A stretch of DNA of 64,000 bases from a virus (Duplodnaviria > Caudoviricetes): positions 400 to 64,399 of the IMG/VR virus record IMGVR_UViG_3300033069_000592, one strand, 5' to 3'. The position numbers and the translations under genes are program-made. The notes beneath the pieces are model-generated. The model was not told where the DNA came from, searched no databases, and saw only the letters and a program-made list of their open reading frames with translations. Below, piece by piece: positions 13,186 to 41,219 of this stretch (positions are counted from its first letter, which is position 1; every line of letters begins with the position of its first letter).

Positions 13186-13214
13186 ATTATCAATCATTCA
13201 TTGCCACCTGTCAA
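13186..13214 (-). promoter_or_regulatory. sigma70-type promoter
   Basis: TTGACA-17nt-GATAAT. Confidence 0.65.
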
Positions 13215-14044
13215 CGCACCACTTCCGCGGGTAGCATTTTGCGGTACTGGATCCACCCATCGAAGTTCCCGTGGAGGTGGGGCTCATACCAATGATGAAC
13301 CTTATGAACCTTAGCAATCAGCCGGTCCGGCGTTGCCTGGTGCTCGGCCGGCGAAGCGTGAACCGGGCGACTGACAACCAGCTTCTCATACCGAGCAATC
13401 TCAGCGTTGACGTCCGCCTCACCGTCGAACGGCTTGTAGCTGAGTCGGGCGCATCGGGCCACAGACATCATCTGGAGGGTATTCAAGCCCCAACGCCCGT
13501 CGGCTTCCCAGTCGCTGATGTAGGGCAGGTGCCACTCACCGTGGTGCAGCAGCTTCGGGGTGCTCGAGTCCATGGCGTTCTTCATCGCCGTCGCCAGCTG
13601 GTCGAACTCAGGCTGAGCATACGGACTGATCCGAAGCTCAAAAAAGTTCTTCCATCGGGTAGCCGTCACCAGAACGTCAATCCACCCAAACCACTCGAGC
13701 GGCCGATTGGCCCATTGCTTGTGCATACCCTCGGCCTGCCAGTGTTCGACCTGATCGCGGCAGATCTGGGCTAGGCGTTCCCACTCATCCGCCCACTTCC
13801 GCTGAAGATGGTCGGGCGCCCGAATTTCGGATTGCATACCCGGCTTGTTCATGCCGAACTCGGGCACGAAGATCTGCTCGGTCAACAAGACCTTGCTCGG
13901 TACTGCACGACTGCTGCGAGCATTACGGCTGAAGTCTCGATGAGTCATCAGCTCCGAGTGGATCGCTCGCCAATAGCGAAGGTGAAAGGTGGTCAGCCGG
14001 ATGCCTTCGGGGCTGATGCTGTCGAGAATGATGTTGGCGAACAC
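13211..14044 (-). CDS. thyX: Flavin-dependent thymidylate synthase (ThyX-like), GTG start at 14044
   Basis: HSELMTHRDFSRNARSSRAVP, HKQWANRPLE, NFFELR...AQPE; SD AAGGAAG. Confidence 0.85.
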   Translation of the reverse strand: MFANIILDSISPEGIRLTTFHLRYWRAIHSELMTHRDFSRNARSSRAVPSKVLLTEQIFVPEFGMNKPGMQSEIRAPDHLQRKWADEWERLAQICRDQVEHWQAEGMHKQWANRPLEWFGWIDVLVTATRWKNFFELRISPYAQPEFDQLATAMKNAMDSSTPKLLHHGEWHLPYISDWEADGRWGLNTLQMMSVARCARLSYKPFDGEADVNAEIARYEKLVVSRPVHASPAEHQATPDRLIAKVHKVHHWYEPHLHGNFDGWIQYRKMLPAEVVR

Positions 14045-14045
14045 T

Positions 14046-14150
14046 CTACTTCCTTTCTGCGGCTCGTGCCGCCATGCCGATGAGATAACCGGCGACAATC
14101 GAGATGGCCTGCCATAGGGCAACCTCCCGGACGGTATACTCACCCGTCAT
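14046..14150 (-). CDS. 34-aa single-pass membrane peptide (not in ORF track)
   Basis: MTGEYTVREVALWQAISIVAGYLIGMAARAAERK fills the gap between the MazG-like gene and thyX. Confidence 0.5.
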   Translation of the reverse strand: MTGEYTVREVALWQAISIVAGYLIGMAARAAERK

Positions 14151-16720: not shown

Positions 16721-16848
16721 CTCGATTAGCCTTTCAATCAATTACGTGACTCCATAAACCTTAGAAATATGGATATGGACCAGGTCAGTGATACATACAA
16801 AAATCGCGGAATTTTATTACGTCGGTGTTTAATGAAATTACATTAATA

Positions 16849-16886
16849 AAACGTTGCGATTGTATGTTTACATTATCGCAACGTTT
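16849..16886 (-). terminator. Terminator-like hairpin after the 99-aa gene
   Basis: Perfect 12-bp inverted repeat AAACGTTGCGAT (16849-16860) / ATCGCAACGTTT (16875-16886), followed on the minus strand by a T/A-rich run. Confidence 0.65.
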
Positions 16887-16900
16887 CATGTCATCGCGCG

Positions 16901-17200
16901 TTATTCCGCATCGACGTTTTCGCGCGTTGTCGCGTCATTCTTTTTCGTCGTGCGCTTTTTCGCGTTTTCGATGCGTTGCGCGTAACGCGCGTCGAATGCG
17001 CAACGAATTGCGTCGTATTCACGCGAATTGTTTGCAATCCATGACGTGTTTTTGACATGCGATTGCGCAAACGCGACGCGCAATTTCGCGCGAATCTTTT
17101 TCGCGTTGTCGTCGATGATCGTTTTTTCACGCATCGCGTCATCGATGATCGTTTTCAAAACGATTGGAAACGCGCGCGTTTTCGTGTTTGACTTCGACAT
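16901..17200 (-). CDS. 99-aa basic protein encoded almost without CC/CT/GG/AG (probable family member 5)
   Basis: SD AAGGAA before ATG 17200 (MSKSNTKT); KKIRAKLR...SW resembles KIARAKLR...SW of the 27653 protein. Confidence 0.75.
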   Translation of the reverse strand: MSKSNTKTRAFPIVLKTIIDDAMREKTIIDDNAKKIRAKLRVAFAQSHVKNTSWIANNSREYDAIRCAFDARYAQRIENAKKRTTKKNDATTRENVDAE

Positions 17201-17224
17201 TTCGTTTATTCCTTTTTTCATCGA

Positions 17225-17281
17225 ATCGCGTGATTGCGTTTTCGATGTCATGAATATGCGCGCAAACGTTTAATAAATCAA
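17225..17281 (-). promoter_or_regulatory. sigma70-type promoter with leader motif
   Basis: TTGATT-17nt-CATATT; leader contains AACGC AATCAC GCGAT. Confidence 0.6.
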
Positions 17282-17347
17282 TAACGTGATGAAAAATTAT
17301 TTGTTTCATTTTGACACAACCCATAATTAACAAACAAGGTTAACAAA

Positions 17348-21200: not shown

Positions 21201-21340
21201 ACAGGCTCCACGATGATGAAACGGGTTTTGGGATCGATGGCGACGGGTCGGTAGAAGTCCGTCGGTGTGGCGATGAGGATCTCGTCGATGTCTTCGAGTT
21301 CAGAGGCTTCGAGCAGCTCGATGAGTTCACGCTTGGTCAT
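21197..21340 (-). CDS. 47-aa hypothetical protein (not in ORF track)
   Basis: MTKRELIELLEASELEDIDEILIATPTDFYRPVAIDPKTRFIIVEPV; ATGA overlaps on both sides. Confidence 0.65.
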   Translation of the reverse strand: MTKRELIELLEASELEDIDEILIATPTDFYRPVAIDPKTRFIIVEPV

Positions 21341-28429: not shown

Positions 28430-30337
28430 TTATTCTTCGTCGGATGATGAGTCTTCAATCTTCCAGTACTCAACACCCTTGCGGGTCTTTCTGGTGACTC
28501 CCATCTTTGAAGCTGCTCGTTCGATCATCTGGACATTGATGCTGCGCTTCTCGGCCATGCGGAACAGCTTCGACATTTCAACAGCGGCGCCGGTGATCGT
28601 AGCCTCAAGGAACTCCATAGCATCTTGCATATGAGTACCCTGCTTACCTTCGGCCCGAGCATTAGAGGCTGCGTCGAGAACCTCCTGTGCGGAGTAGTTA
28701 ACGAACCCTCCCCAAACGAAGGCCGACTTGCCCTTGGGCTTTTCGTCAATGCGAAACGCAAGTCCTGGGGGTGCTTTAGCGAAGTTGATCTTGGTAACGC
28801 ACATGACGCGGGTCTCAGTATCGTTGGGGTCAACACCCACAGACATAACAACACGGGCCGAGCCTGAGAACGCGATAGAACCTTGACCACGATACATTGC
28901 AGAGCCGGTTCCCTTGGTCAAGTGACGCAGAACCAACACCGCACAGTTAAAGTCCTTGGCCAGCTTCTTGAATACACCCATCGCCTGCGTAACCTCCGCA
29001 GCTTTATGGGCGTCTGCGCGGCCAATATAGGTATTCAGGGTATCGAACACCAAGAGCGAAGGCTTGATAACCTCAAGGTGCTCGTAGATTTCCGCGATAG
29101 CATCCTCATCATCGATGCTAAAGCCTTCCTCAATTGGATAGTAGTCGTTCAGGTCAGTGAAGCCATTGTCTTCGAGTCGCGGCTTGGTGACTGACCCCGC
29201 GCTGTTTTCCAAGTCGAAATAGACCACGCTTCCCTGAGAGACCGGCAAACCCCGCTTGAATGTTGGGATCCTCTGACCTGTGGAAATCATGGCTGAAACC
29301 ATCATGGCGAGATAGGATTTACCAAGGCCCGGGTCACCCTCAAGGATCGACACTTCGCCGCGAGCCAGATAAGGCTCCCACAGGAAGTCGAGGTTAACCC
29401 GTTGAACCTTCGCCATGGGAATGAAATTGAAGCGCGACTCATATTCTTCCTCGCGTTCTTCCTCATCCGACTTTCGTTTGAGCTTTTCTTTTCCCTTGCC
29501 CTTATCACGGAACTGATTGTTGACGACCTTCTCAATCTCACGGCGAAGTTGAGCGTCCTCGTTGCGACGGCCCGCGAACTTGTTCCAGGCGCTGCGCTTG
29601 ATAACTGCAAGTGCTTCGTCTGTGGTCATCCCCGCTTCAAGGCAGGCGTTCTCCAGCTTCCAAAGCATTTCGCTTCGGTCAGCAGTGCCGGTGATTTTCT
29701 TCGCGAGCAATTCACGACGAACCCAGCGCGGCAGCTTCCCCTCATACTCGGAGAATACCTCCGCAGCAGAAAGGATCTGGCCTTCTTCCTCCTCGTCCTC
29801 CTCGGGAAGCTTCGACTCGATGTTCTTACGCTTATAGACCTTGCCGTCGTCCCACATAACGCGGACACGCGGCTGCGATTTATATTTGTAGTTCTTCGTG
29901 CCGGGGAACCGGAGAACCTGAGTCAAGTCCCAGCCGCCGTGGTCCGCTTCGACGTGATAGGTCAGCCGGCGGTTGATGTCTTCGGTCATCGGCTTATCAA
30001 GTTCCCACAGGCCGACGTAGCGGCCCGGCGACGACTCAATAGCAATGGTCGGCTTCAACCCCTTGAACAGCTTTTCGTTACGCGGGTCCGAATAGTCAAG
30101 GTCTGCCCAGAGCAGGTTCGGGATAACGGCCTCTTCCTTCTGACGCACTCGACGATTGAAGCCGTGCGGGCAGAAGTAAATGTCATGGTCGTCATAGTCG
30201 CGGAGGAACTGCTTGATCGAGCCGAAGTCATCGGGCGAGAAGAAGTGATCCTTCCACTTACCCGCGGGTGACTTGGTAGAAATGCAGAAATACTTACCGG
30301 GCTGTCTCTTCCATAGCTCAATGATTACGTTCTTCAC
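28430..30337 (-). CDS. Primase-helicase (RepB-type primase N-terminus + AAA_25/RecA-like ATPase)
   Basis: LWADLD, ESSPGR, LRFPGTKN; Walker A GDPGLGKS, Walker B LLVFDT; GTG start overlaps the HNH stop. Confidence 0.9.
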   Translation of the reverse strand: MKNVIIELWKRQPGKYFCISTKSPAGKWKDHFFSPDDFGSIKQFLRDYDDHDIYFCPHGFNRRVRQKEEAVIPNLLWADLDYSDPRNEKLFKGLKPTIAIESSPGRYVGLWELDKPMTEDINRRLTYHVEADHGGWDLTQVLRFPGTKNYKYKSQPRVRVMWDDGKVYKRKNIESKLPEEDEEEEGQILSAAEVFSEYEGKLPRWVRRELLAKKITGTADRSEMLWKLENACLEAGMTTDEALAVIKRSAWNKFAGRRNEDAQLRREIEKVVNNQFRDKGKGKEKLKRKSDEEEREEEYESRFNFIPMAKVQRVNLDFLWEPYLARGEVSILEGDPGLGKSYLAMMVSAMISTGQRIPTFKRGLPVSQGSVVYFDLENSAGSVTKPRLEDNGFTDLNDYYPIEEGFSIDDEDAIAEIYEHLEVIKPSLLVFDTLNTYIGRADAHKAAEVTQAMGVFKKLAKDFNCAVLVLRHLTKGTGSAMYRGQGSIAFSGSARVVMSVGVDPNDTETRVMCVTKINFAKAPPGLAFRIDEKPKGKSAFVWGGFVNYSAQEVLDAASNARAEGKQGTHMQDAMEFLEATITGAAVEMSKLFRMAEKRSINVQMIERAASKMGVTRKTRKGVEYWKIEDSSSDEE

Positions 30338-30840
30338 TTGGGCTTCCTTCCCGACACTGAGCCCCAAGGCCGCTTGTTCTTGTTTTGCTCAGACCACGTA
30401 GCCCACTTACAGTTAGAAGGCTCGTAGTTGCCAGCATTATCAATTCGTTCGAGCGTTAATCCCGGCGGCCTATCTCCCATATCGGTAAGAAACTCCTCGA
30501 AAGATTTCCACCGATCACAGAAAGTTACACCCCTACCGCCGTGAGTTGGATAGGCACGGTCTTTAGGATTAGAGCATCGAGAAATCATACTTCGCCAGGA
30601 GGAATAAGCACCTTTATGCTGCTCAATAAAAAGGGCCCTCTCGGTTTTCTCCCGGGGTTTCACCTTATTAAATCTAATCTCGCTTTTAATTCGGTCATAC
30701 TCCCGGCGGTCGATCAGACGAAGTCTACCAAAAGAATGAGTCTGGATTTGTCCTCGTTGAACCCTCGCATATAGGGTCTTGTAGGCTACACCCAATTCCT
30801 GGGATACACTTTCAAGAGTATAGAAATCGGAGAGAAGCAC
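30334..30840 (-). CDS. HNH-type homing endonuclease with N-terminal HTH
   Basis: SWRSMISRC...YPTHGGRGVTFCDRWKSFEEFLTDMG.RP.G.TLERIDNAGNYEPSNCKWAT; lower GC than neighbours. Confidence 0.85.
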   Translation of the reverse strand: MLLSDFYTLESVSQELGVAYKTLYARVQRGQIQTHSFGRLRLIDRREYDRIKSEIRFNKVKPREKTERALFIEQHKGAYSSWRSMISRCSNPKDRAYPTHGGRGVTFCDRWKSFEEFLTDMGDRPPGLTLERIDNAGNYEPSNCKWATWSEQNKNKRPWGSVSGRKPK

Positions 30841-30933: not shown

Positions 30934-31428
30934 ATGGCCATCATCGTCGAAGGTATGGATAATTCGGGCAAGTCTACGTTGGGACAGGCGCTCGCCGATT
31001 ACATGGACCTGATCGTGCAGGAGAGCGAGGGCCCGCCTATCGACGCGGACGAGATTAATGCTCGCGTTGATCGCTACGAAGGAATGACGGATAGGCTGTT
31101 CGTTCGGCATCCCGTTATCTCCAATGCGATTTACGGACAAGTCCGCGAAGAAGGCGACATTATCTCCGAAGGTCGCCGTATGCTCTTCTACGAAAACAAG
31201 CATACGATCATCTACTGCGATGCGGGGACCCGCGGTCTCGGTGCTCATGTCCAGAAGGCTCATGATACTGAGAAGCACCTGGAAGACATCACCAACAACT
31301 ACAACAAGCTGCTCTACCTTTACCGTCAATGGGCGGCCGAGCATGCTCACTTCGTCTATCGCATCGGCGATGATATGGACCAGCTGATTGCTACGGTCTA
31401 CTTCTACCATATGTATCAGAACAGCTAA
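30934..31428 (+). CDS. P-loop nucleoside monophosphate kinase
   Basis: IIVEGMDNSGKST; 164 aa; first gene of the nucleotide-metabolism operon. Confidence 0.75.
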   Translation: MAIIVEGMDNSGKSTLGQALADYMDLIVQESEGPPIDADEINARVDRYEGMTDRLFVRHPVISNAIYGQVREEGDIISEGRRMLFYENKHTIIYCDAGTRGLGAHVQKAHDTEKHLEDITNNYNKLLYLYRQWAAEHAHFVYRIGDDMDQLIATVYFYHMYQNS

Positions 31429-31437
31429 GGAGAACGA

Positions 31438-32316
31438 GTGATGTTTATTCCAACTCACCGACACGTGGATGGCGGCCTTTATCAGCATATCGGCCCTATG
31501 AGAGGTAAGCATCCTTCGAACGACCTATGGTTCGAGGGCATCGCCTATCGCAATGAAGAAGGCATGATGTTCTGGACCACCGAAGAACGGTGGAATGATC
31601 GCTTCGAAGCCCTCGAGCCCTCATCCTTCCGCGATGTCCTGTTGTGGGACGATCAGAACGAAGCGGTGGCTTCTTTCCGCATCGAGGCTCACCACGCTAC
31701 CGACGCTTACTATATGATTACCCGCGCGGGCCCGGGAAACAGCCACAAGGTCAGCCGCGAGTTCTTGGACTGGATGCGTCGGGTTCTCAAGGTTCAAGCG
31801 GAAATGATCGCCGAGGGTCTTCATATCCGTGAGCACGACTTTCCCGATCTTATCGGTGATGTCAACGCTTTCCACGCCAAGTTCGGTCAGGAATACACCG
31901 GCAAGCCCCGGCTACTGCCACGGGATCTCCATGAGTTTCGCACCAAATTCCATGACGAGGAAACCGGCGAGTATACTGAGGAGTATGAGAAGCTCTTGGA
32001 TGCGATTGAGCGCCGCGACCGGCGGGACATCATTACCGCGATGGAGAAGCAGCTGGACTCGCTGGCCGACGCTGCCTGGGTTATTCTCGGGACTGCAGAT
32101 CTTCAGTTCGGTCGGAAGGCGTTCATCGAAGCATGGCGCCGAGTCGTGAAAGCCAATATGGCGAAAGTCTTGGCGACGGAGGATCCCAACGCCGAGGACA
32201 GCGGCCGGGAAGTCAAATATGACATTCGCAAGCCCGCCGGCTGGCTGCCGCCCGATCACCGTGACCTGGTCGAGGACAACGCCATCTTCGATGAACTCTT
32301 TGGACAGGAAGCCTAA
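31438..32316 (+). CDS. DUF1653-like N-terminus fused to MazG-like (all-alpha) dNTP pyrophosphatase
   Basis: HRHVDGGLY...YRNEEG...RF; DVNAFHAKFG...DEETGEY...LDSLADAAWV...VVKANMAK. Confidence 0.75.
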   Translation: MMFIPTHRHVDGGLYQHIGPMRGKHPSNDLWFEGIAYRNEEGMMFWTTEERWNDRFEALEPSSFRDVLLWDDQNEAVASFRIEAHHATDAYYMITRAGPGNSHKVSREFLDWMRRVLKVQAEMIAEGLHIREHDFPDLIGDVNAFHAKFGQEYTGKPRLLPRDLHEFRTKFHDEETGEYTEEYEKLLDAIERRDRRDIITAMEKQLDSLADAAWVILGTADLQFGRKAFIEAWRRVVKANMAKVLATEDPNAEDSGREVKYDIRKPAGWLPPDHRDLVEDNAIFDELFGQEA

Positions 32317-32319
32317 GCC

Positions 32320-33156
32320 ATGAAGGATGAGTGGATCAAAGAGATCTTGAGGCTTTCGCGTCAAGAAGCCGACTTCTATTCGGGATGCCGAAAGATCATT
32401 CGTAACCACATGGTCACTTTCGATGACCTGTGGGAGGACGAAGATCCACTCATCCTCGAGGACGCCGGTTATACCAAGTCCAAGATGTCCCACCTGGTAA
32501 GGCTCTATCATCACGAGGAGTCTATCGAAAAAGCCATAGAGCTTTGGAAGCTTCGCCGCTCCAAGACTTCCTATGGCTCTGTGGGCTTCACCTGCTACAA
32601 CCACTTGGTGAAGAATGATGCCGAGAAAAAATCGAAGCGGGCCTCGGTCATGGGTCCATGTATTCAGGCTGTTACGATTACGCAGGTTAAGGGCGGTAAA
32701 AACGGGCAGTACTACATCGACGCCTTCTACCGAACCACGGAAATCCTGAAGAAGTTTCCCGCGGATCTGGTCTTTATCCGTGATGTCTTGTTGAAAGACT
32801 TTGACTTCTCCGGCATGGAATTTACGGGGCTGACTTGTCATTTCGCAAATGTTACAGTGCATCCGCAGTACTTCGTGACGGCAATCCCCCATATGGAGGA
32901 TCCCATCAAGGAGCTCGAACGCATCAAGAAGAAGGACCGCTACTTCTATGACTGGATCATCAAGTGGACGGCTCGATACTTGTGTGAAGAGCACTACCGA
33001 GGAATTGCCAAGTTCGCGCAGGCTCTCCGTGTTAAAATGGATGCTGACAAGCGGATCAAGGGACGCCGACGCCGCGAGCTTACTGACTACCTCCGGGCTA
33101 ATCATCCCGGCCATCGCCACGACTACACCGCTCCCGAAGAGGAAGATGAAGAATGA
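32320..33156 (+). CDS. Divergent thymidylate-synthase-fold protein
   Basis: GPCIQ ... YRTTEILKKFPADL aligns register-for-register with APCTI ... IRSCDFVKHFRNDL of the next gene. Confidence 0.65.
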   Translation: MKDEWIKEILRLSRQEADFYSGCRKIIRNHMVTFDDLWEDEDPLILEDAGYTKSKMSHLVRLYHHEESIEKAIELWKLRRSKTSYGSVGFTCYNHLVKNDAEKKSKRASVMGPCIQAVTITQVKGGKNGQYYIDAFYRTTEILKKFPADLVFIRDVLLKDFDFSGMEFTGLTCHFANVTVHPQYFVTAIPHMEDPIKELERIKKKDRYFYDWIIKWTARYLCEEHYRGIAKFAQALRVKMDADKRIKGRRRRELTDYLRANHPGHRHDYTAPEEEDEE

Positions 33157-33995
33157 TGTATAACCGCTTTGATGCCGTCATCCAGGAATATCGGGATAGG
33201 CTGAGGAACGAAGGCGAGCTGGTTCACAGCCGCCGTTGGCAGGGTGTCGAAATTGCGAACAACCCCAATATGGCGTGTCTTGAATTGACTCACGTCCACT
33301 TCGAAGTGCAGATGGATGGTTATGAGGAAGACCTCGAAGTATACGCCAAGTGCATTCAGCCCGACCTCCCATGGGCGGACAACCACTTCGAGGAGCGAGT
33401 TTGCGGCTATCCGATCAATCCCGGTACCGAGTTCAAGAACTGGCCATGGAACAGGGGGCGTGGCGCTGAGTCGTTCCTTGATCGCCGGGGCAAGTTCAAT
33501 CACAACTACATGGAGCGGTACTGGCCGAAGCATGCCCACGTGGTTCAAGAGCCCACAGCCGGTTCGGCGGATTATCGGTCGCGCTTCAAGGACTACTTCC
33601 AGACCGGCAAGGTCTCGACCATGCAGGGCATCATGTATGAGTATGGTGACCTGAAGGACGTGGTGGACCTGATGATCGATGATCCCCTGACCCGCCAGGC
33701 CTATTTGCCTGTGTGGTTCCCCGAGGACACCGGCGGCGGTGACAAGCGAGCACCCTGCACCATTGGTTACCACTTCCTGATGCGGAATGATCGACTGTCG
33801 GTCAACTACCATATTCGCAGCTGCGACTTCGTCAAGCACTTCCGCAATGATCTTTATCTTACGGCTCGATTGGTGATCTGGGTGCTTCGTCAGCTACAGT
33901 CTCGCGATGCTCGCTGGAAGGAAGTGTCCGTCGGTGATTTCATCATGCAGATTGGTTCGCTGCACTCATTCCGTCCGGACTGGGAGCTGATCTGA
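33153..33995 (+). CDS. Thymidylate synthase/dCMP hydroxymethylase-family enzyme, predicted dCMP-specific
   Basis: TRQAYLPVW, catalytic PC, RSCD, Asp at the E. coli ThyA Asn177 position (FRND as in T4 gp42), GSLH. Confidence 0.85.
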   Translation: MMYNRFDAVIQEYRDRLRNEGELVHSRRWQGVEIANNPNMACLELTHVHFEVQMDGYEEDLEVYAKCIQPDLPWADNHFEERVCGYPINPGTEFKNWPWNRGRGAESFLDRRGKFNHNYMERYWPKHAHVVQEPTAGSADYRSRFKDYFQTGKVSTMQGIMYEYGDLKDVVDLMIDDPLTRQAYLPVWFPEDTGGGDKRAPCTIGYHFLMRNDRLSVNYHIRSCDFVKHFRNDLYLTARLVIWVLRQLQSRDARWKEVSVGDFIMQIGSLHSFRPDWELI

Positions 33996-34214: not shown

Positions 34215-34724
34215 ATGGCTCGTATCTCTCGACAGCAAATGTTTATGGGAATTGCAAGGCTCGCTTCACAGCGGGCCACTTGCTTTCGACTGAACGTTGG
34301 GGCGCTGGTTGTTCATGAGAACAATCCCATCGCCATCGGCTACAATGGCCAAGAACCTGGAGCTCGTCACTGCGCCGGCAATGACTGCCCGGGGATTGTG
34401 CCCGGCAAGTGTGGAACGCTTCATGCCGAACACAACGCGCTGACCAAGGCGGACAAGCTCATCGATGACCTGGCGGAGGTTGACCTCTACGTTACCCACA
34501 GTCCCTGCGTCGATTGCTGTTTACTTATCATCAACCAGGACCTCTACGTCCGCAGGATTTTCTTCGAGGTTCCCTATCGATCCACACAGCACCTGAGTAT
34601 GCTTCAAGAGTACCGGGACGTTACCTCACTCGAAGGCGGCGTCCGGCATACGGAAGTTTACGAGGTGACGCCGGCGGGCTACGTCGTGGAATACTTCTCC
34701 CGAAGGGTAGTTGAATTGCCATGA
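34215..34724 (+). CDS. dCMP deaminase
   Basis: RATC.RLNVGA, GYNG, HAE, SPCVDC zinc-binding motifs. Confidence 0.92.
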   Translation: MARISRQQMFMGIARLASQRATCFRLNVGALVVHENNPIAIGYNGQEPGARHCAGNDCPGIVPGKCGTLHAEHNALTKADKLIDDLAEVDLYVTHSPCVDCCLLIINQDLYVRRIFFEVPYRSTQHLSMLQEYRDVTSLEGGVRHTEVYEVTPAGYVVEYFSRRVVELP

Positions 34725-35020
34725 GGTGTCGTCCTTACCAATGGCATGGTAAGAGCATGTCTCCCACCTACGTCAGCTGGTTGGCGATGAAGCAGAGGTG
34801 CTATAACCCACGACGGACAGGATATGAGAACTACGGTGGTCGAGGCATCACCGTATGCGATAGATGGAAGGATAGCTTTGTGGCTTTTCTGGAGGACATG
34901 GGGGAACGCCCCGAAGGTCTTACCCTTGAAAGAAAAGATAACGAGGGTAATTATGAGCCGGATAACTGTGAGTGGGCAACCAAATCCCAACAGAGCAAAA
35001 ACCAACGCCGAAAGCGTTGA
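34721..35020 (+). CDS. HNH-type homing endonuclease
   Basis: SWLAMKQRC...YGGRGITVCDRW...TLERKDNEGNYEPDNCEWAT; same family as 30334-30840. Confidence 0.85.
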   Translation: MRCRPYQWHGKSMSPTYVSWLAMKQRCYNPRRTGYENYGGRGITVCDRWKDSFVAFLEDMGERPEGLTLERKDNEGNYEPDNCEWATKSQQSKNQRRKR

Positions 35021-35081: not shown

Positions 35082-37586
35082 ATGGCTAAGAAAAAGGTAA
35101 TGGTGATCGGGGAGCATCCTCGAATTAACCCCCGCGCAAAAGCAATCCTCATGGACGCCATGCTGGCAATCGGCATTGAGGAGGATGAGTTCGATTGGGT
35201 TAACGTTCTCGAGGAAGCTCCCCCGGAAGGAAAGAACGTCACCAAAACCATGATTAAGAATGCGAAGCCGGCGCTGCTTCGTAAGATCGAAAAGAAAAAC
35301 CCAAAGTATATCGTGCCTCTCGGCAACACGCCCTGCATGGCACTGATGGATCAGTCTGGTATCAAGAAGCTTCGCGGTAAGCCGGTGCTTCATGACAACC
35401 GAGTCGTTCTCCCGATCCTGCATCCCAACCAAGCTCTCCATGATGATAAGTGGATTGACATCATCGAGGGGGACATTCGACGTCTTCGGGAGTGCATCCA
35501 GTATAGAGGCATCCCGGAGGAAAAAGCGCTCGACTTTCATATCGTCGATGACTGGGACAAAGTCAAGGCGATGCTCAAGGATCTCGACGGCACTGTGGCG
35601 GTCGACCTTGAAACAACAAGGCTATACCCCTTTACCACCTTACAAGACGAGCAGATCGAGATTGGTCGAGCCTCAAAAGCCCTGCTCGATCAGCACAAAG
35701 CGACTCATGGGAGCAACAACCTTCCTCGGGTCGTTGCTATGCAGTTCGGCTGTCGCAAGCGTCAATGGGTCGTTCCCATGGAAACGGCGGGCATCTGGAC
35801 GCGCGAGGAACTTGAGAAGATCGTCAAGCTGGCGACTCGCAAGTTGAAGGAGTGCAAGACGGTATTCCACAACGGCAAGTTCGACTGCCTGTGGATGCGT
35901 GTTCGATTTGGCGTTAAGTGGCGAGTCGACTTCGATACCATGTTGGCTCACTACCTACTGGATGAGAACGATTTCCACGGGCTGAAGTACTTGGCGCAGC
36001 GTTTCCTCGGTGCTCCCGATTGGGACGTTGAAGGTAAGGAAAAAACCGAATGGTCGCCGAAGAACGCCAAGTATGCCGCGCATGACGTTTTCTATACCCG
36101 TAAGCTAAAGCCGATCCTAGCGAAGCAGCTTCGCGAAGACTGGGACGTTAAGCGCGTCTTCGACTTGGTCATGATGCCCTGCGTTAAGCTTTTCATCGAA
36201 GCCGAATACAATGGCGTTTATATTGACCTCGACAAGATGGACGATGCGGAGGTATTCCTTCGCGAGCAACTTGCCGAAGCTCAAGCGAACCTCGAGGTGT
36301 GGGGTAACAAAGCCAAGAAGGTTGATACCAAGAAGCGTTCGCCAACCTATGGCAAAATCAACTGGGGTAGCGCTGACCAGCTGGGTGACTTGCTGTTCAA
36401 TGTTCTGAAAATCAAGCCCCTTGAAAAAACGAAAGCGGGGAAAAACAGTGTTAGCGAGTCAGTCCTCCTCCGTCTCGACCATCCCATGGTCAGCGACCTT
36501 CTCAAATATCGAGCTGCTCAAAAACAACTCAGCAGCTTCATTGAAGGCTGGAAGCCTTACCTTGATACCTCTGGGCGCCTCCATCCAGTTTTCAAACTGC
36601 ATGGTACTGTTACCGGCCGACTCAGTTGCGAGCATCCTAACCTCCAACAAGTCCCTCGCGATCCTCGGATCCGCAGTCTTATCACAGCTCCTCCAGGATG
36701 GACGCTTATGGAGATGGACCTCAGCCAGATTGAGCTGCGGATTGCAGCAGAGCTGGCAAGCGAACACAACCTCCTTGGGGTCTTCCAAAGCGGAGGTGAC
36801 CCTCACTGGACTACTGCAATTCGAGAAATTGAACGCGGAGCCGGTTATGCCAAGGAGGTGAAGAAAACCGCAAGGCTTCACCATGAAAAGCTTGGCAAAG
36901 AATATGTCAAGATGAATTACAGCGAAGCTATCGAATATATCCTCAGCATCGGCGGTAAGGCCTGCGAAGAGCTGATGGATATGTGGAAGGAAGTTCGTAA
37001 AAAGGCCAAGGCTATTAACTTCGGCTACCTGTATGGTATGTGGTGGAAGAAGTTTAAGATCTACGCCCGTGACAACTACGGCGTTGACGTGACCGACGAG
37101 GAAGCACAAGCCAGCCGCGAAGCCTTCTTTGAGCTGTATTCAAAGTTCCCCGCATGGCACGAAAAGCAAAGGCGCTTTGCACAGGTCAATGGCTACGTCC
37201 GATCACTGTCCGGTCGCAAACGTCGATTGCCCGCCGCCACAGCAGGCCGAGACTCGCCCGAGAGGCGTGAAGCGCAGCGTCAAGCGATCAACTCCCCGGT
37301 GCAGTCGTTTGCCAATGAACTGAACCTCATGGCGGCGCTTCAGATGCGCAAGGAGTTCAGCTGGAATTGGTTCCGTATCTGCGGTACCGTTCATGACGCT
37401 ATCCTTATGTGGGTCCGTAATGACAAGATCGAACACGTCCATGATAGGGGCTTGCGGATTATGTCTGGACCCGAGTTGTTGACAGACTTTGAAATCGACC
37501 TTAGTGTTCCTATTGAAGCTGACGCGAAGGTAGGTCCCTGGGGACTTGGAAAGGATTTAGACAAATGGCTCGCCGCACAAAAGTAA
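35082..37586 (+). CDS. polA: Family A DNA polymerase with N-terminal UDG-like domain and 3'-5' exonuclease
   Basis: GEHP...LHP UDG-like motifs; DLETT, HNGKFD, YAAHD exonuclease; DLSQIELR, KAINFGYLYG, VHD polymerase motifs. Confidence 0.95.
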   Translation: MAKKKVMVIGEHPRINPRAKAILMDAMLAIGIEEDEFDWVNVLEEAPPEGKNVTKTMIKNAKPALLRKIEKKNPKYIVPLGNTPCMALMDQSGIKKLRGKPVLHDNRVVLPILHPNQALHDDKWIDIIEGDIRRLRECIQYRGIPEEKALDFHIVDDWDKVKAMLKDLDGTVAVDLETTRLYPFTTLQDEQIEIGRASKALLDQHKATHGSNNLPRVVAMQFGCRKRQWVVPMETAGIWTREELEKIVKLATRKLKECKTVFHNGKFDCLWMRVRFGVKWRVDFDTMLAHYLLDENDFHGLKYLAQRFLGAPDWDVEGKEKTEWSPKNAKYAAHDVFYTRKLKPILAKQLREDWDVKRVFDLVMMPCVKLFIEAEYNGVYIDLDKMDDAEVFLREQLAEAQANLEVWGNKAKKVDTKKRSPTYGKINWGSADQLGDLLFNVLKIKPLEKTKAGKNSVSESVLLRLDHPMVSDLLKYRAAQKQLSSFIEGWKPYLDTSGRLHPVFKLHGTVTGRLSCEHPNLQQVPRDPRIRSLITAPPGWTLMEMDLSQIELRIAAELASEHNLLGVFQSGGDPHWTTAIREIERGAGYAKEVKKTARLHHEKLGKEYVKMNYSEAIEYILSIGGKACEELMDMWKEVRKKAKAINFGYLYGMWWKKFKIYARDNYGVDVTDEEAQASREAFFELYSKFPAWHEKQRRFAQVNGYVRSLSGRKRRLPAATAGRDSPERREAQRQAINSPVQSFANELNLMAALQMRKEFSWNWFRICGTVHDAILMWVRNDKIEHVHDRGLRIMSGPELLTDFEIDLSVPIEADAKVGPWGLGKDLDKWLAAQK

Positions 37587-38620
37587 AAGCCGCTCCCGCG
37601 CATGACCACAGCACGGTCTTGACGAAGGATGGTCAGATCAACATCAGCCAATCGAAGATCAAGGCGTGGCGTCAGTGCCGTCGGCAATATCACTGGAAGT
37701 TTGTCGAGCTGATCCAGAAGAAGATGCGTAAGCGTCCCTTCATGTTCGGCGGTATCGTTCACCAGATCTGCGAAGCCGAGTTCGAGCGCGAAGACTGGGA
37801 AGAAGTCCTCAGCCAGATTGAGCTTGACAACAAGAAGCTGTTCCGCAAGGAACGGGAAATGTATGGCAACATCATCGAAGATATCCGGGACATCATGACG
37901 GACTACTTCGATTACTGGGATGGTCACCCTTCGGCAGTCAAGCCCCTGAAGCATGACGGCCGCCGGTCCGAGTTTGAGTTCCGCATCGAGCTGGCCGACG
38001 ATCTATGGTTTACCGGACGCATCGACTCGGTCGTCAAGTCGAAGGGTATGCGCTGGGTCATGGAGCACAAAACGTTCAGCCGTATGCCGTCCGAGGATGA
38101 GCGTTGGCGGTCGGTGCAGGCCGCAGTGTATTTCCGCGCGCTCGAGGAAATGGGCTTCCCTCCCATTGACGGCGTTCTGTGGGATTACATCAGCAGCAAG
38201 GCCCCCAATGTCCCGGGTGAGCTGACCGCTACTGGAAAGGTATCGCAGAAGAAGCTGGACACTGTTCCGAGCAGGATTACGCGCTGGATCAAGGAAAATG
38301 GCCACAGTAAGAAGGAGTTCGCCAAGCTCCTTGAGTCATCCAAGGCTAACCTCCCTAACCGGTTCATTCGACTCTTCAGTCCCGTGAAGCGCCCGGTGGT
38401 CGATATGATCTGGGAGGATTTTGTCGATACTGCTCGTGAAGTGCAGGAGTTCCACGGCCGAAAGAAAGATATGAATATCGGCCGGCACTGCACCTGGTGC
38501 GATTATCAGCCTCTGTGCAAAGCGATGATGACCGGGGCAGACGTCGACTGGTTGATCGAACGCGAGTTTGAACAAGAGGACGTCTCACACAAGAGGGATA
38601 ACAATGGCGAGGAGGACTAA
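37565..38620 (+). CDS. PD-(D/E)XK exonuclease (Cas4/RecB-like)
   Basis: CRRQY, GRIDSVV...MEHKT, QAAVY, C-terminal HCTWCDYQPLC. Confidence 0.85.
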   Translation: MARRTKVKAAPAHDHSTVLTKDGQINISQSKIKAWRQCRRQYHWKFVELIQKKMRKRPFMFGGIVHQICEAEFEREDWEEVLSQIELDNKKLFRKEREMYGNIIEDIRDIMTDYFDYWDGHPSAVKPLKHDGRRSEFEFRIELADDLWFTGRIDSVVKSKGMRWVMEHKTFSRMPSEDERWRSVQAAVYFRALEEMGFPPIDGVLWDYISSKAPNVPGELTATGKVSQKKLDTVPSRITRWIKENGHSKKEFAKLLESSKANLPNRFIRLFSPVKRPVVDMIWEDFVDTAREVQEFHGRKKDMNIGRHCTWCDYQPLCKAMMTGADVDWLIEREFEQEDVSHKRDNNGEED

Positions 38621-39035
38621 GGAGTACCGAGAGCGGAAAGCTCGCCAGTCTAAGGAGTGGAGGGAGGCCTTGACACCCGAAGAAGCGGAGGCTTTTCGTC
38701 AGCGTAAGAACGCAACCATGCGTCAGGGACGCCGGGATCGAAAAGAGCTCTATATGTGGCGAGCAGCGAAGAAGAGGGCCCTGGCTCAGGGGCTTCCCTT
38801 CAACATCGAGGTGAGTGACATCAAGATCCCAAGCCATTGTCCCGTGCTTGGCATTGAATTGAAAGTAAGCGACTCCGGTAGGCAGGGCCCTTCCTCTCCC
38901 TCATTGGATAGAATCAAGCCTCACTGGGGGTATGTCAAGGGTAACATCATCGTGGTAAGCTTTCGAGTTAACCAGATCAAGCGGGATGCTACTCTTGCGG
39001 AAATCGCTGCCATCCATCGCTTCTACTCACTGTGA
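38604..39035 (+). CDS. HNH-type endonuclease (second family)
   Basis: AKKRA...PFNI...IP.HCPVLG...SPSLDRIKPHWGYVKGNIIVVS.RVNQIK. Confidence 0.8.
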   Translation: MARRTKEYRERKARQSKEWREALTPEEAEAFRQRKNATMRQGRRDRKELYMWRAAKKRALAQGLPFNIEVSDIKIPSHCPVLGIELKVSDSGRQGPSSPSLDRIKPHWGYVKGNIIVVSFRVNQIKRDATLAEIAAIHRFYSL

Positions 39036-40808: not shown

Positions 40809-41219
40809 ATGAAGAAGCATCGAACTAGGGACAAGGACCCACAGGGCTATCAACGGAGCCTTCGTAGGGCCAATCCTTCTCGGTACCTATGGAGAAGTGC
40901 TAAGGGCCGAGCATCCCGTCAGGGTATAGAGTTCGACCTCCTCCCCGAGGACGTGGTGATACCCCTTCACTGTCCAGTCTTTGGTATACCTCTACTGATT
41001 AGCGAGGGACGGCATACTGATAACTCACCAAGTGTTGATCGGGTGGATAGTTCAAGGGGCTATGTTAGGGGGAATGTTGAGGTCATCAGCTGGAAAGCTA
41101 ACCGGCTGAAGAGCAATGCCACCCCTCAGGAGCTTAGGAGGCTAGCTGACTACTATGGCAAAGAAAACCGAAAGTCGTCTTCAGCAAAAGATAAGAAAAG
41201 ACCTACAGAGAAGGTTTGA
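40809..41219 (+). CDS. HNH-type endonuclease (same family as 38604)
   Basis: AKGRA...IEFDL...IP.HCPVFG...SPSVDRVDSSRGYVRGNVEVIS.KANRLK. Confidence 0.8.
   Translation: MKKHRTRDKDPQGYQRSLRRANPSRYLWRSAKGRASRQGIEFDLLPEDVVIPLHCPVFGIPLLISEGRHTDNSPSVDRVDSSRGYVRGNVEVISWKANRLKSNATPQELRRLADYYGKENRKSSSAKDKKRPTEKV

Follow-up and report, generated by a model that had tools for sequence, protein, structure and literature searches.

The stretch of DNA analyzed here, referred to as the window, covers 64,000 nucleotides (positions 400 to 64,399) of IMG/VR record IMGVR_UViG_3300033069_000592, the complete 64.4-kb genome of an uncultivated phage that is kin to the Brevundimonas phages Strzyga and Polewnik. The subject is an open reading frame (ORF) of 278 amino acids (aa), gene X, together with the gene that follows it, TS-N, a homologue of thymidylate synthase (TS) that resembles gp42 of phage T4. 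A sequence-only reading of the window had proposed that gene X encodes a highly divergent TS-fold protein coupled to its neighbor, and the ORF was confirmed at exactly 32320-33156 on the + strand. The features of the two genes are as follows.

32320..33156, + strand: gene X, encoding a divergent protein with a predicted TS fold (278-aa ORF, homologues, codon bias and an AlphaFold2 (AF2) model)
32482..32508, + strand: helix with invariant Lys55, Leu59 and Tyr63 (from invariance)
32653..32766, + strand: predicted catalytic core, residues 112-149, with G-P-Cys114, a beta-hairpin, Tyr137-Arg138-Thr-Thr-Glu141 and Lys144-Lys145-Phe-Pro-Ala-Asp149 (from conservation; the sole stretch aligned by hhalign with the neighbor family)
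32860..33153, + strand: helical C-terminal part of the protein (residues 181-278), including a basic stretch at 244-253 and an acidic tail (predicted helices 182-261)
33153..33156, + strand: ATGA overlap of the X stop codon (TGA) and the TS-N start codon (ATG), read from the sequence
33153..33995, + strand: TS-N, gp42-like TS homologue, 280 aa (phrog_160 at 4e-28)

Gene X is a real and strongly conserved gene. Its ATG lies 3 nt past the stop codon of the NTP-pyrophosphatase gene that precedes it. Clustering at 90% left 936 homologues, and clustering at 50% left 230 representatives. Mismatches to eight relatives fell on codon positions 1, 2 and 3 of the + frame in the ratio 405:261:1161. Because the mismatches follow the codon positions of the X frame, a 402-aa antisense ORF that overlaps the gene (31912-33120, - strand) was dismissed as spurious. 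A search for X in fused or lengthened proteins of 488-2000 aa found none, which is weak evidence, and the slightly longer relatives P0124, P0167, P0270 and P0166 carried no Pfam domain. The only PHROGs match was phrog_34294, a family of unknown function. Two GenBank records label homologues of X as “pyrimidine hmase synthase” by automated annotation, and the clade is invisible to Pfam and NCBIfam, with most members annotated as hypothetical. No description of the family was found in the literature on cultured carriers, TS paralogues and heterodimers, Muddy, or AfhB. The X family is a new, uncharacterized clade of a known superfamily, that of TS.

An alignment of 71 divergent X sequences, with identities down to 23%, was used for the AF2 model and for the residue conservation values given below. 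Sequence comparisons did not place X among the TS enzymes. There was no Pfam or NCBIfam match for X, none of the 71 family members matched PF00303 at an E-value of 0.1 or better, and neither a phmmer sequence search nor a profile search of the PDB gave a TS match. BLASTP of X against the downstream TS homologue returned an E-value of 4.7, so that the likeness of the two by sequence alone is not above chance. When the two families were compared by hhalign, the result was an E-value of 0.014 and a probability of 3% over 48 aligned columns. These columns paired P-C...Y-R-T-T-E...A-D-L of X with P-C...I-R-S-C-D...D-D-L of the neighbor, so that the Cys, Arg and Asp residues of the two families coincide.

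The predicted structure, by contrast, points clearly to the TS fold. The AF2 model of X had a mean predicted local distance difference test score (pLDDT) of 93.7 and a predicted template modeling score (pTM) of 0.90. A Foldseek search, which the sequence-only reading had named as a check, returned only TS-family proteins as top matches. The VIA structure scan is independent of Foldseek and covers 48,161 PDB representatives without bias. Its top seven chains were all TS-family members (Z 9.3-12.8, 159-181 residues aligned, root-mean-square deviation (rmsd) 3.6-4.7), and the next chain had a Z of 5.4. The TS-family match covers residues 1-195 of the model, and 396 TS-family chains reached a Z of 8 or more against it. 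The best of these were enzymes of cytosine nucleotides, AfhB (Z 13.2) and MilA (Z 12.9), while TS enzymes acting on uracil nucleotides reached 10.9 or less. As a scale, a model of TS-N (pLDDT 74.8, and thus of lower confidence) reached only Z 12.7-15.4 against the same TS chains. X is therefore predicted to fold like a thymidylate synthase, and the proposal of a highly divergent TS-fold protein was upheld by the model, by Foldseek and by TS chains at Z 9.3-13.2.

The motifs on which that proposal was built were all found in the translations. In X they are P113-C114-I-Q, R138-T-T-E141-x7-D149, ANVTVH at 176-181 and KRIKGRRRRE at 244-253; in the neighbor they are P201-C202-T-I, R222-S-C-D225-x7-D233 and GSLHSF. 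Five residues of X are invariant in 71/71 sequences: K55, Y63, C114, R138 and D149. Conservation is 90% or higher at L59, which is also listed as invariant, and at S87, K98, E141 and F146. Position 113 is Pro in 62% of the family, position 139 is Thr or Ser in 86%, and position 141 is always acidic (Glu 94%, Asp 6%). The statement that X keeps the catalytic Cys and the Arg/Asp register was therefore correct, with the Cys, the phosphate Arg and the Asp at the pyrimidine position all invariant. When Escherichia coli ThyA, T4 gp42 and the neighbor clade were aligned, the register was C114=C146, R138=R166, T139=S167, E141=D169 and D149=N177, given as X and ThyA residues. D149 sits 11 residues past R138, the same distance as N177 past R166, while the spacing from Cys to Arg is 24 residues in X compared to 20 in the neighbor and in E. 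coli ThyA. X thus has features of the TS superfamily, namely a Cys nucleophile at the start of a core strand and an Arg166-Ser167-type clamp with an acidic residue three positions on. An Asp at the ThyA N177 position is an established switch to specificity for deoxycytidine monophosphate (dCMP) (PMC13326640). This feature of the cytosine branch (T4 gp42, MilA, and AfhB type) is present in X as D149.

Outside this core, X departs from ThyA. Tyr63 was tentatively equated with ThyA Tyr94 by a relaxed, low-confidence hhalign alignment rather than by superposition. By register from D149, Lys144-Lys145 occupies the positions of L172/G173, which contact folate in ThyA. The linker from strand 24-34 to Tyr63 has 29 residues, compared to about 58 in ThyA, and so the E58 helix and the W80/W83 segment seem to be missing from X, although the alignment is of low confidence here. 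These comparisons suggest that X lacks a canonical folate pocket. The loop before strand 86-91 is rich in Lys and Arg but variable (R79 in 63%, K84 in 59%), and the family as a whole is basic, with a median isoelectric point (pI) of 9.4 compared to 6.1 for the TS-N family and 5.6-5.8 for ThyA and gp42.

The C-terminal region of X has no counterpart in solved TS enzymes, and residues 181-265 gave only weak helical matches (Z 3.4-4.6). A basic C-terminal helix, KRIKGRRRRE, had been described from the sequence. The stretch is present, but it spans the junction of two predicted helices (residues 233-245 and 248-261) and its sequence is not conserved. The C-termini of the family are variable in sequence and mostly of net positive charge. 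No DNA-binding fold was detected in the X model by the VIA scan.

TS-N itself gave no Pfam match, although its homologues carry PF00303, and its best PDB sequence match was T4 dCMP hydroxymethylase (E 0.006). Compared with ThyA, it has an invariant Asp at N177, Arg at L143, Asn or Asp at E58, Gln at R127 and Phe at Y209, and its chain ends soon past the H207 motif, leaving a short C-terminus. The distribution of the pair was examined in 57 IMG/VR loci with X, recovered using 20 closer X sequences as queries. TS-N lay downstream of X on the same strand in all 56 loci that could be tested (the 57th ends 254 nt past X), and roughly half of the 57 have the two genes no more than 33 nt apart. It also followed X in every phage and metagenome neighborhood inspected. 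The coupling of X to the first TS homologue, as proposed, was thus seen both physically, in the ATGA overlap, and evolutionarily, in the 56/56 loci. Among close relatives (L015-L030), the identity of TS-N was bimodal, at about 80% or at 52-63% (about 56%), while X stayed at 71-85%. X and TS-N therefore reassort, which suggests exchange of TS-N alleles inside an otherwise collinear module. A heterodimer prediction for X and TS-N, with each supplied as an alignment, scored 0.00; it was run with no controls and counts neither for nor against binding.

X and TS-N belong to a module of nucleotide genes that runs in the order primase/helicase (- strand), dNMP-kinase-like protein, NTP pyrophosphatase, X, TS-N, a 72-aa ORF, dCMP deaminase, HNH endonuclease and PolA with an N-terminal uracil-DNA glycosylase (UDG). 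The neighbors of the pair, and a gene for a second type of thymidylate synthase elsewhere in the window, are as follows.

30934..31428, + strand: P-loop dNMP (thymidylate)-kinase-like protein, first module gene (phrog_761 thymidylate kinase at 1.8e-9; in 50/57 loci)
31438..32316, + strand: NTP pyrophosphohydrolase with a MazG/dUTPase_2-like C-terminal domain, adjoining X upstream (phrog_671 at 7.7e-16)
34215..34724, + strand: dCMP deaminase (PF00383 at 3.3e-18; in 54/57 loci)
35082..37586, + strand: family-A DNA polymerase with an N-terminal UDG domain (PF03167, 28.5 bits and over the cut-off; PF01612; PF00476)
13211..14143, - strand: divergent ThyX, flavin-dependent thymidylate synthase, 310 aa (PF02511 at 9e-9, above the cut-off)

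Within the module, X had the highest mean identity (58-60%), followed by PolA (56%), TS-N (49%), the kinase (48%) and the deaminase (47%). The same gene order was found in phages of Brevundimonas, Serratia, Pseudomonas, Yersinia and Desulfofustis and in metagenomic phages, and PolA was present in 54/57 loci. The UDG domain of PolA (PF03167) spans residues 5-120, and the same fusion occurs in the distant carriers L009 and L010. UDG-fused PolA enzymes have recently been tied to phages with T-modified genomes (PMC13697223). Equivalents of the NTP pyrophosphohydrolase in related phages are annotated as dUTPase or NTP pyrophosphatase. Only about 150 C-terminal residues of the window's protein match known families, the N-terminal 130 or so being without a match, and in Strzyga the annotated orthologue is shorter by about 90 residues. 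Two HNH endonuclease genes of one type, at 30334-30840 (- strand) and 34721-35020 (+ strand), flank the module or interrupt it, and endonuclease VII/HNH-like genes are also present at 38568-39035 and 40809-41219. The other ORFs scanned, a subset of those in the window, yielded no recognizable enzyme of DNA-level modification such as a glycosyltransferase or methyltransferase.

ThyX is a separate route to thymidine monophosphate (dTMP) in the source phage. Its TIGR02170 score of 41.6 bits is below the cut-off of 87.9, and in its motif T-H-R-D-F-S-R-N-A-R-S-S-R a Thr replaces the first Arg. ThyX also occurs in Strzyga and some other carriers and is absent from the complete carrier genomes G006 and G009.

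In Serratia phage Serbin (L003), the X/TS-N module adjoins the polymerase. Serbin was reported to be related to the 9g/CAjan group without having its queuosine (7-deazaguanine) cluster (PMC6509536), and the presence of X/TS-N in place of that cluster fits exchangeable DNA-modification modules. A more distant case is gene 50 of Gordonia phage Yakult (L007:2559-3458), which lies directly upstream of the Yakult TS gene. Its product, a hypothetical protein, has a G-S-C motif followed at a distance of 20 residues by R-x10-D, in which the +3 position is Tyr, and hhalign to the X profile gave a weak E-value of 2e-4 over 70 columns. Gene 50 and the Yakult TS gene are therefore probably an actinophage version of the pair, and the X/TS-N pair may extend to actinophages.

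The sequence-only reading had also linked X to an island that is free of CY dinucleotides. The CY/RG-free island at 16791-17319 is real, with 11 CC, CT, GG or AG dinucleotides in 528 compared to 111 expected from its own base composition. This is more than seven standard deviations below the window mean (26.6%, standard deviation about 3%). The link to X was not supported. When 12 genomes carrying gene X were compared, a strong copy (2% or less CY/RG dinucleotides) was found in only three, all of the ~65-kb lineage. Two related ~65-kb IMG/VR phages have equally strong islands, near 21201 of the L018 record and near 33701 of the L032 record, and three more relatives, including Strzyga, have weaker ones. 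In five more distant carriers of X/TS-N, nothing beyond scan noise was found. Since the island is absent from distant carriers, the X family is far wider than the island, which is lineage-specific and does not single out X.

Three possible roles had been put forward from the sequence, those of a heterodimer partner, a second-step enzyme and a version acting on DNA, and all three are treated here as hypotheses. Taken together, the invariant nucleophile, the phosphate clamp, the cytosine-type Asp, the strongest purifying selection in the module, and neighbors that handle mononucleotides lead us to favor, tentatively and at slightly less than an even chance, the reading that X is a catalytically active, pared-down enzyme of the TS/dCMP-hydroxymethylase fold that acts with TS-N on a cytosine mononucleotide before replication. 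The substrate, the cofactor, the order of steps and the product are those we infer. In such an enzyme, Cys114 would add to C6 of the pyrimidine, and Asp149, at the position of ThyA Asn177 and T4 gp42 Asp179, would read and protonate the N3/N4 edge of cytosine. The 5'-phosphate would be held by Arg138, Thr139 and Arg24/Lys25, and the C5 proton would be handled by Tyr63. The folate pocket would have been rebuilt, with Lys144-Lys145 for L172/G173, the E58/W80/W83 segment missing, and a new helical C-terminal domain. A rebuilt folate side would suggest a different co-substrate, and TS-type exocyclic-methylene chemistry with a non-folate co-substrate would be the most likely course. One option is that X converts the product of TS-N, 5-hydroxymethyl-dCMP or a related intermediate, to another 5-substituted dCMP. 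The product of X would then be phosphorylated by the phage kinase and incorporated by the phage polymerase. By analogy, the exocyclic-methylene route on the TS-N product would be the most economical chemistry, and it can be likened in mechanism, not in fold, to that of the clade 2 aGPT-Pplases.

The module itself favors an enzyme of the nucleotide pool, since the neighbors are all mononucleotide-pool enzymes laid out like the deoxycytidine (dC)-replacement set of T4. Several points weigh on the other side. Nothing points to modified DNA in any of the carrier phages. Illumina sequencing of Serbin met with no reported difficulty, and the Serbin paper reports nothing on DNA modification; the P744 paper mentions neither restriction nor modification. 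Illumina-labelled public runs also contain the sequence of the window. The runs with this region are riverine, sludge and wastewater metagenomes and one 2025 study, and they are kept only as contigs and therefore carry no base-modification signal. Beyond the Cys...Arg...Asp core, the residue equivalences rest on low-confidence alignments. In one such alignment, X has no conserved Arg-Arg pair at the position of ThyA R126/R127, which are donated across the dimer to the 5'-phosphate. This absence, like the basic pI, would also fit an X that acts on nucleic acid or binds another protein.

An unlikely alternative is that X acts on polymeric DNA (or RNA), flipping out a cytosine or 5-substituted cytosine after replication and altering its C5, possibly in a sequence context. 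Its charge would suit such a role: the family's median pI exceeds that of TS-N by far, many basic positions are conserved (R24/K25, K55, R61, K84, K98, K144/K145, R154, K215 and R237), and the extra C-terminal helical domain is mostly of net positive charge. X also has Lys-Lys where ThyA binds folate and no conserved Arg-Arg for a free 5'-phosphate, and the CY/RG-free island shows that the source genome is under some context-dependent pressure. That island, however, does not track the gene, being strong in 3/12 carriers and absent from distant ones. The phosphate clamp of R138 and T139 is kept, the fixed neighbors all serve the nucleotide pool, and no DNA-binding fold was detected. All the TS-fold enzymes among the structural matches and in the work cited here act on mononucleotides, and to our knowledge this holds for every characterized TS-fold enzyme. 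In TS enzymes, which are obligate dimers, each active site is completed by residues of the other subunit, and X could instead be a non-catalytic or half-site partner of TS-N. It would tune or complete the TS-N active site, either in a TS-like heterodimer or as a scaffold of a dNTP-synthesizing complex. The two genes overlap and always travel together, the proteins are of opposite charge (pI 9.4 and 6.1), and TS-N is without the C-terminal lid of ThyA and has Gln in place of R127. We nevertheless consider this role improbable, since the invariant Cys/Arg/Asp/Tyr/Lys set speaks for catalysis by X itself, as does its conservation, the highest in the module. Also, near-identical X is found next to TS-N alleles of either class (about 80% or about 56% identity), which looks like free reassortment rather than a co-evolved interface.

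Least probable by a wide measure is that X is an ordinary, fast-evolving thymidylate synthase or deoxyuridine monophosphate (dUMP) hydroxymethylase that supplies dTMP or 5-hydroxymethyl-dUMP. The dCMP deaminase and the UDG-fused polymerase of the module would suit it, as would the two complete carriers without ThyX. Against it, the invariant residue at the N177 position is Asp, not Asn, X apparently lacks folate-binding elements, PF00303 is matched by no member, and the source phage and several relatives carry ThyX for dTMP.

The favored reading of an active cytosine-nucleotide enzyme leaves room for a bolder one, which we regard as fairly unlikely. X would be the first TS-fold enzyme whose substrate is DNA, or else a nucleotide used together with a co-substrate that is neither folate nor flavin, and it would install an undescribed C5-substituted cytosine. 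If so, the phages with this base would form a widespread group, with hosts among the Proteobacteria and perhaps the Actinobacteria. Most known pyrimidine hypermodifications of phages, including 5-hydroxymethylcytosine (5hmC), 5-hydroxymethyluracil (5hmU), 5-methylcytosine (5mC) and 5-hydroxycytosine (5hoC), start from enzymes of the TS superfamily. A new modified cytosine, a new TS co-substrate or a polymer substrate would, if true, add to TS enzymology as well as to the biology of phage anti-restriction. No gene of the module is better conserved than X, and the module itself occurs in hundreds of metagenomic phages and in cultured ones that infect Brevundimonas, Serratia, Pseudomonas and Yersinia. 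Several carriers can be grown, and the base made by the X/TS-N pair is therefore open to direct test.

Among known systems, the best structural match to X is AfhB of E. coli phage HY126 (PDB 9iqu and 9iqc), at Z 13.2 over 180 residues with an rmsd of 3.9. AfhB, RB69 gp48 and DLP3 gp80 are flavin-dependent 5-hydroxy-dCMP synthases (PMC13326640), a group marked by bound flavin and O2-dependent hydroxylation. Like these, X is a small phage-encoded protein of predicted TS fold with Asp at the N177 position. The AfhB type performs non-folate chemistry on a TS scaffold (PMC13326640), which for X is only a proposal. The signature of the 5-hydroxy-dCMP synthases is D169N (PMC13326640), while position 141 of X is Glu or Asp in 71/71 sequences and never Asn. 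The sequence identity of X to AfhB is 12-14%, and the two differ in their C-terminal domains. X has neither arabinosyl- nor glycosyltransferases nearby, and it always stands beside a second TS homologue.

The second-best structural match is MilA, the CMP 5-hydroxymethylase of mildiomycin biosynthesis (PDB 5b6d, 5b6e and 5jnh; Z 10.8-12.9), which is likewise a TS homologue specific for cytosine nucleotides. MilA, however, is a bacterial enzyme of an antibiotic pathway, prefers ribonucleotides, depends on folate, and has 318 aa with 7% identity to X. T4 gp42 dCMP hydroxymethylase (PDB 1b5d, 6a9a and 6l18) resembles X in fold (Z 9.9-10.3), in the Cys nucleophile and the Arg, and in a cytosine reader of the Asp179 type. 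The dC-replacement pathway of T4 (gp56, gp42, gp1 and cd) also shares the logic of the module, with an NTP pyrophosphatase, a TS homologue, a dNMP kinase and a dCMP deaminase. Unlike X, gp42 is recognized by PF00303 and, by way of E60 and a folate pocket, uses methylene-tetrahydrofolate; X matches no profile and apparently lacks these elements. Since the gp42-like role is filled by TS-N, X would be an additional enzyme without a counterpart in T4. The clade 2 aGPT-Pplases, which act in thymidine hypermodification in phages M6 and ViI, add a Cys to C6, form an exocyclic C5 methylene from an installed hydroxymethyl group and accept a new nucleophile, all without folate (PMC8989533). The likeness to X is mechanistic only, in that the same chemistry is proposed here; these enzymes have an unrelated helix-hairpin-helix, glycosylase-like fold with no homology to X, and they act on phosphorylated 5-hydroxymethyldeoxyuridine (5-hmdU) in DNA.

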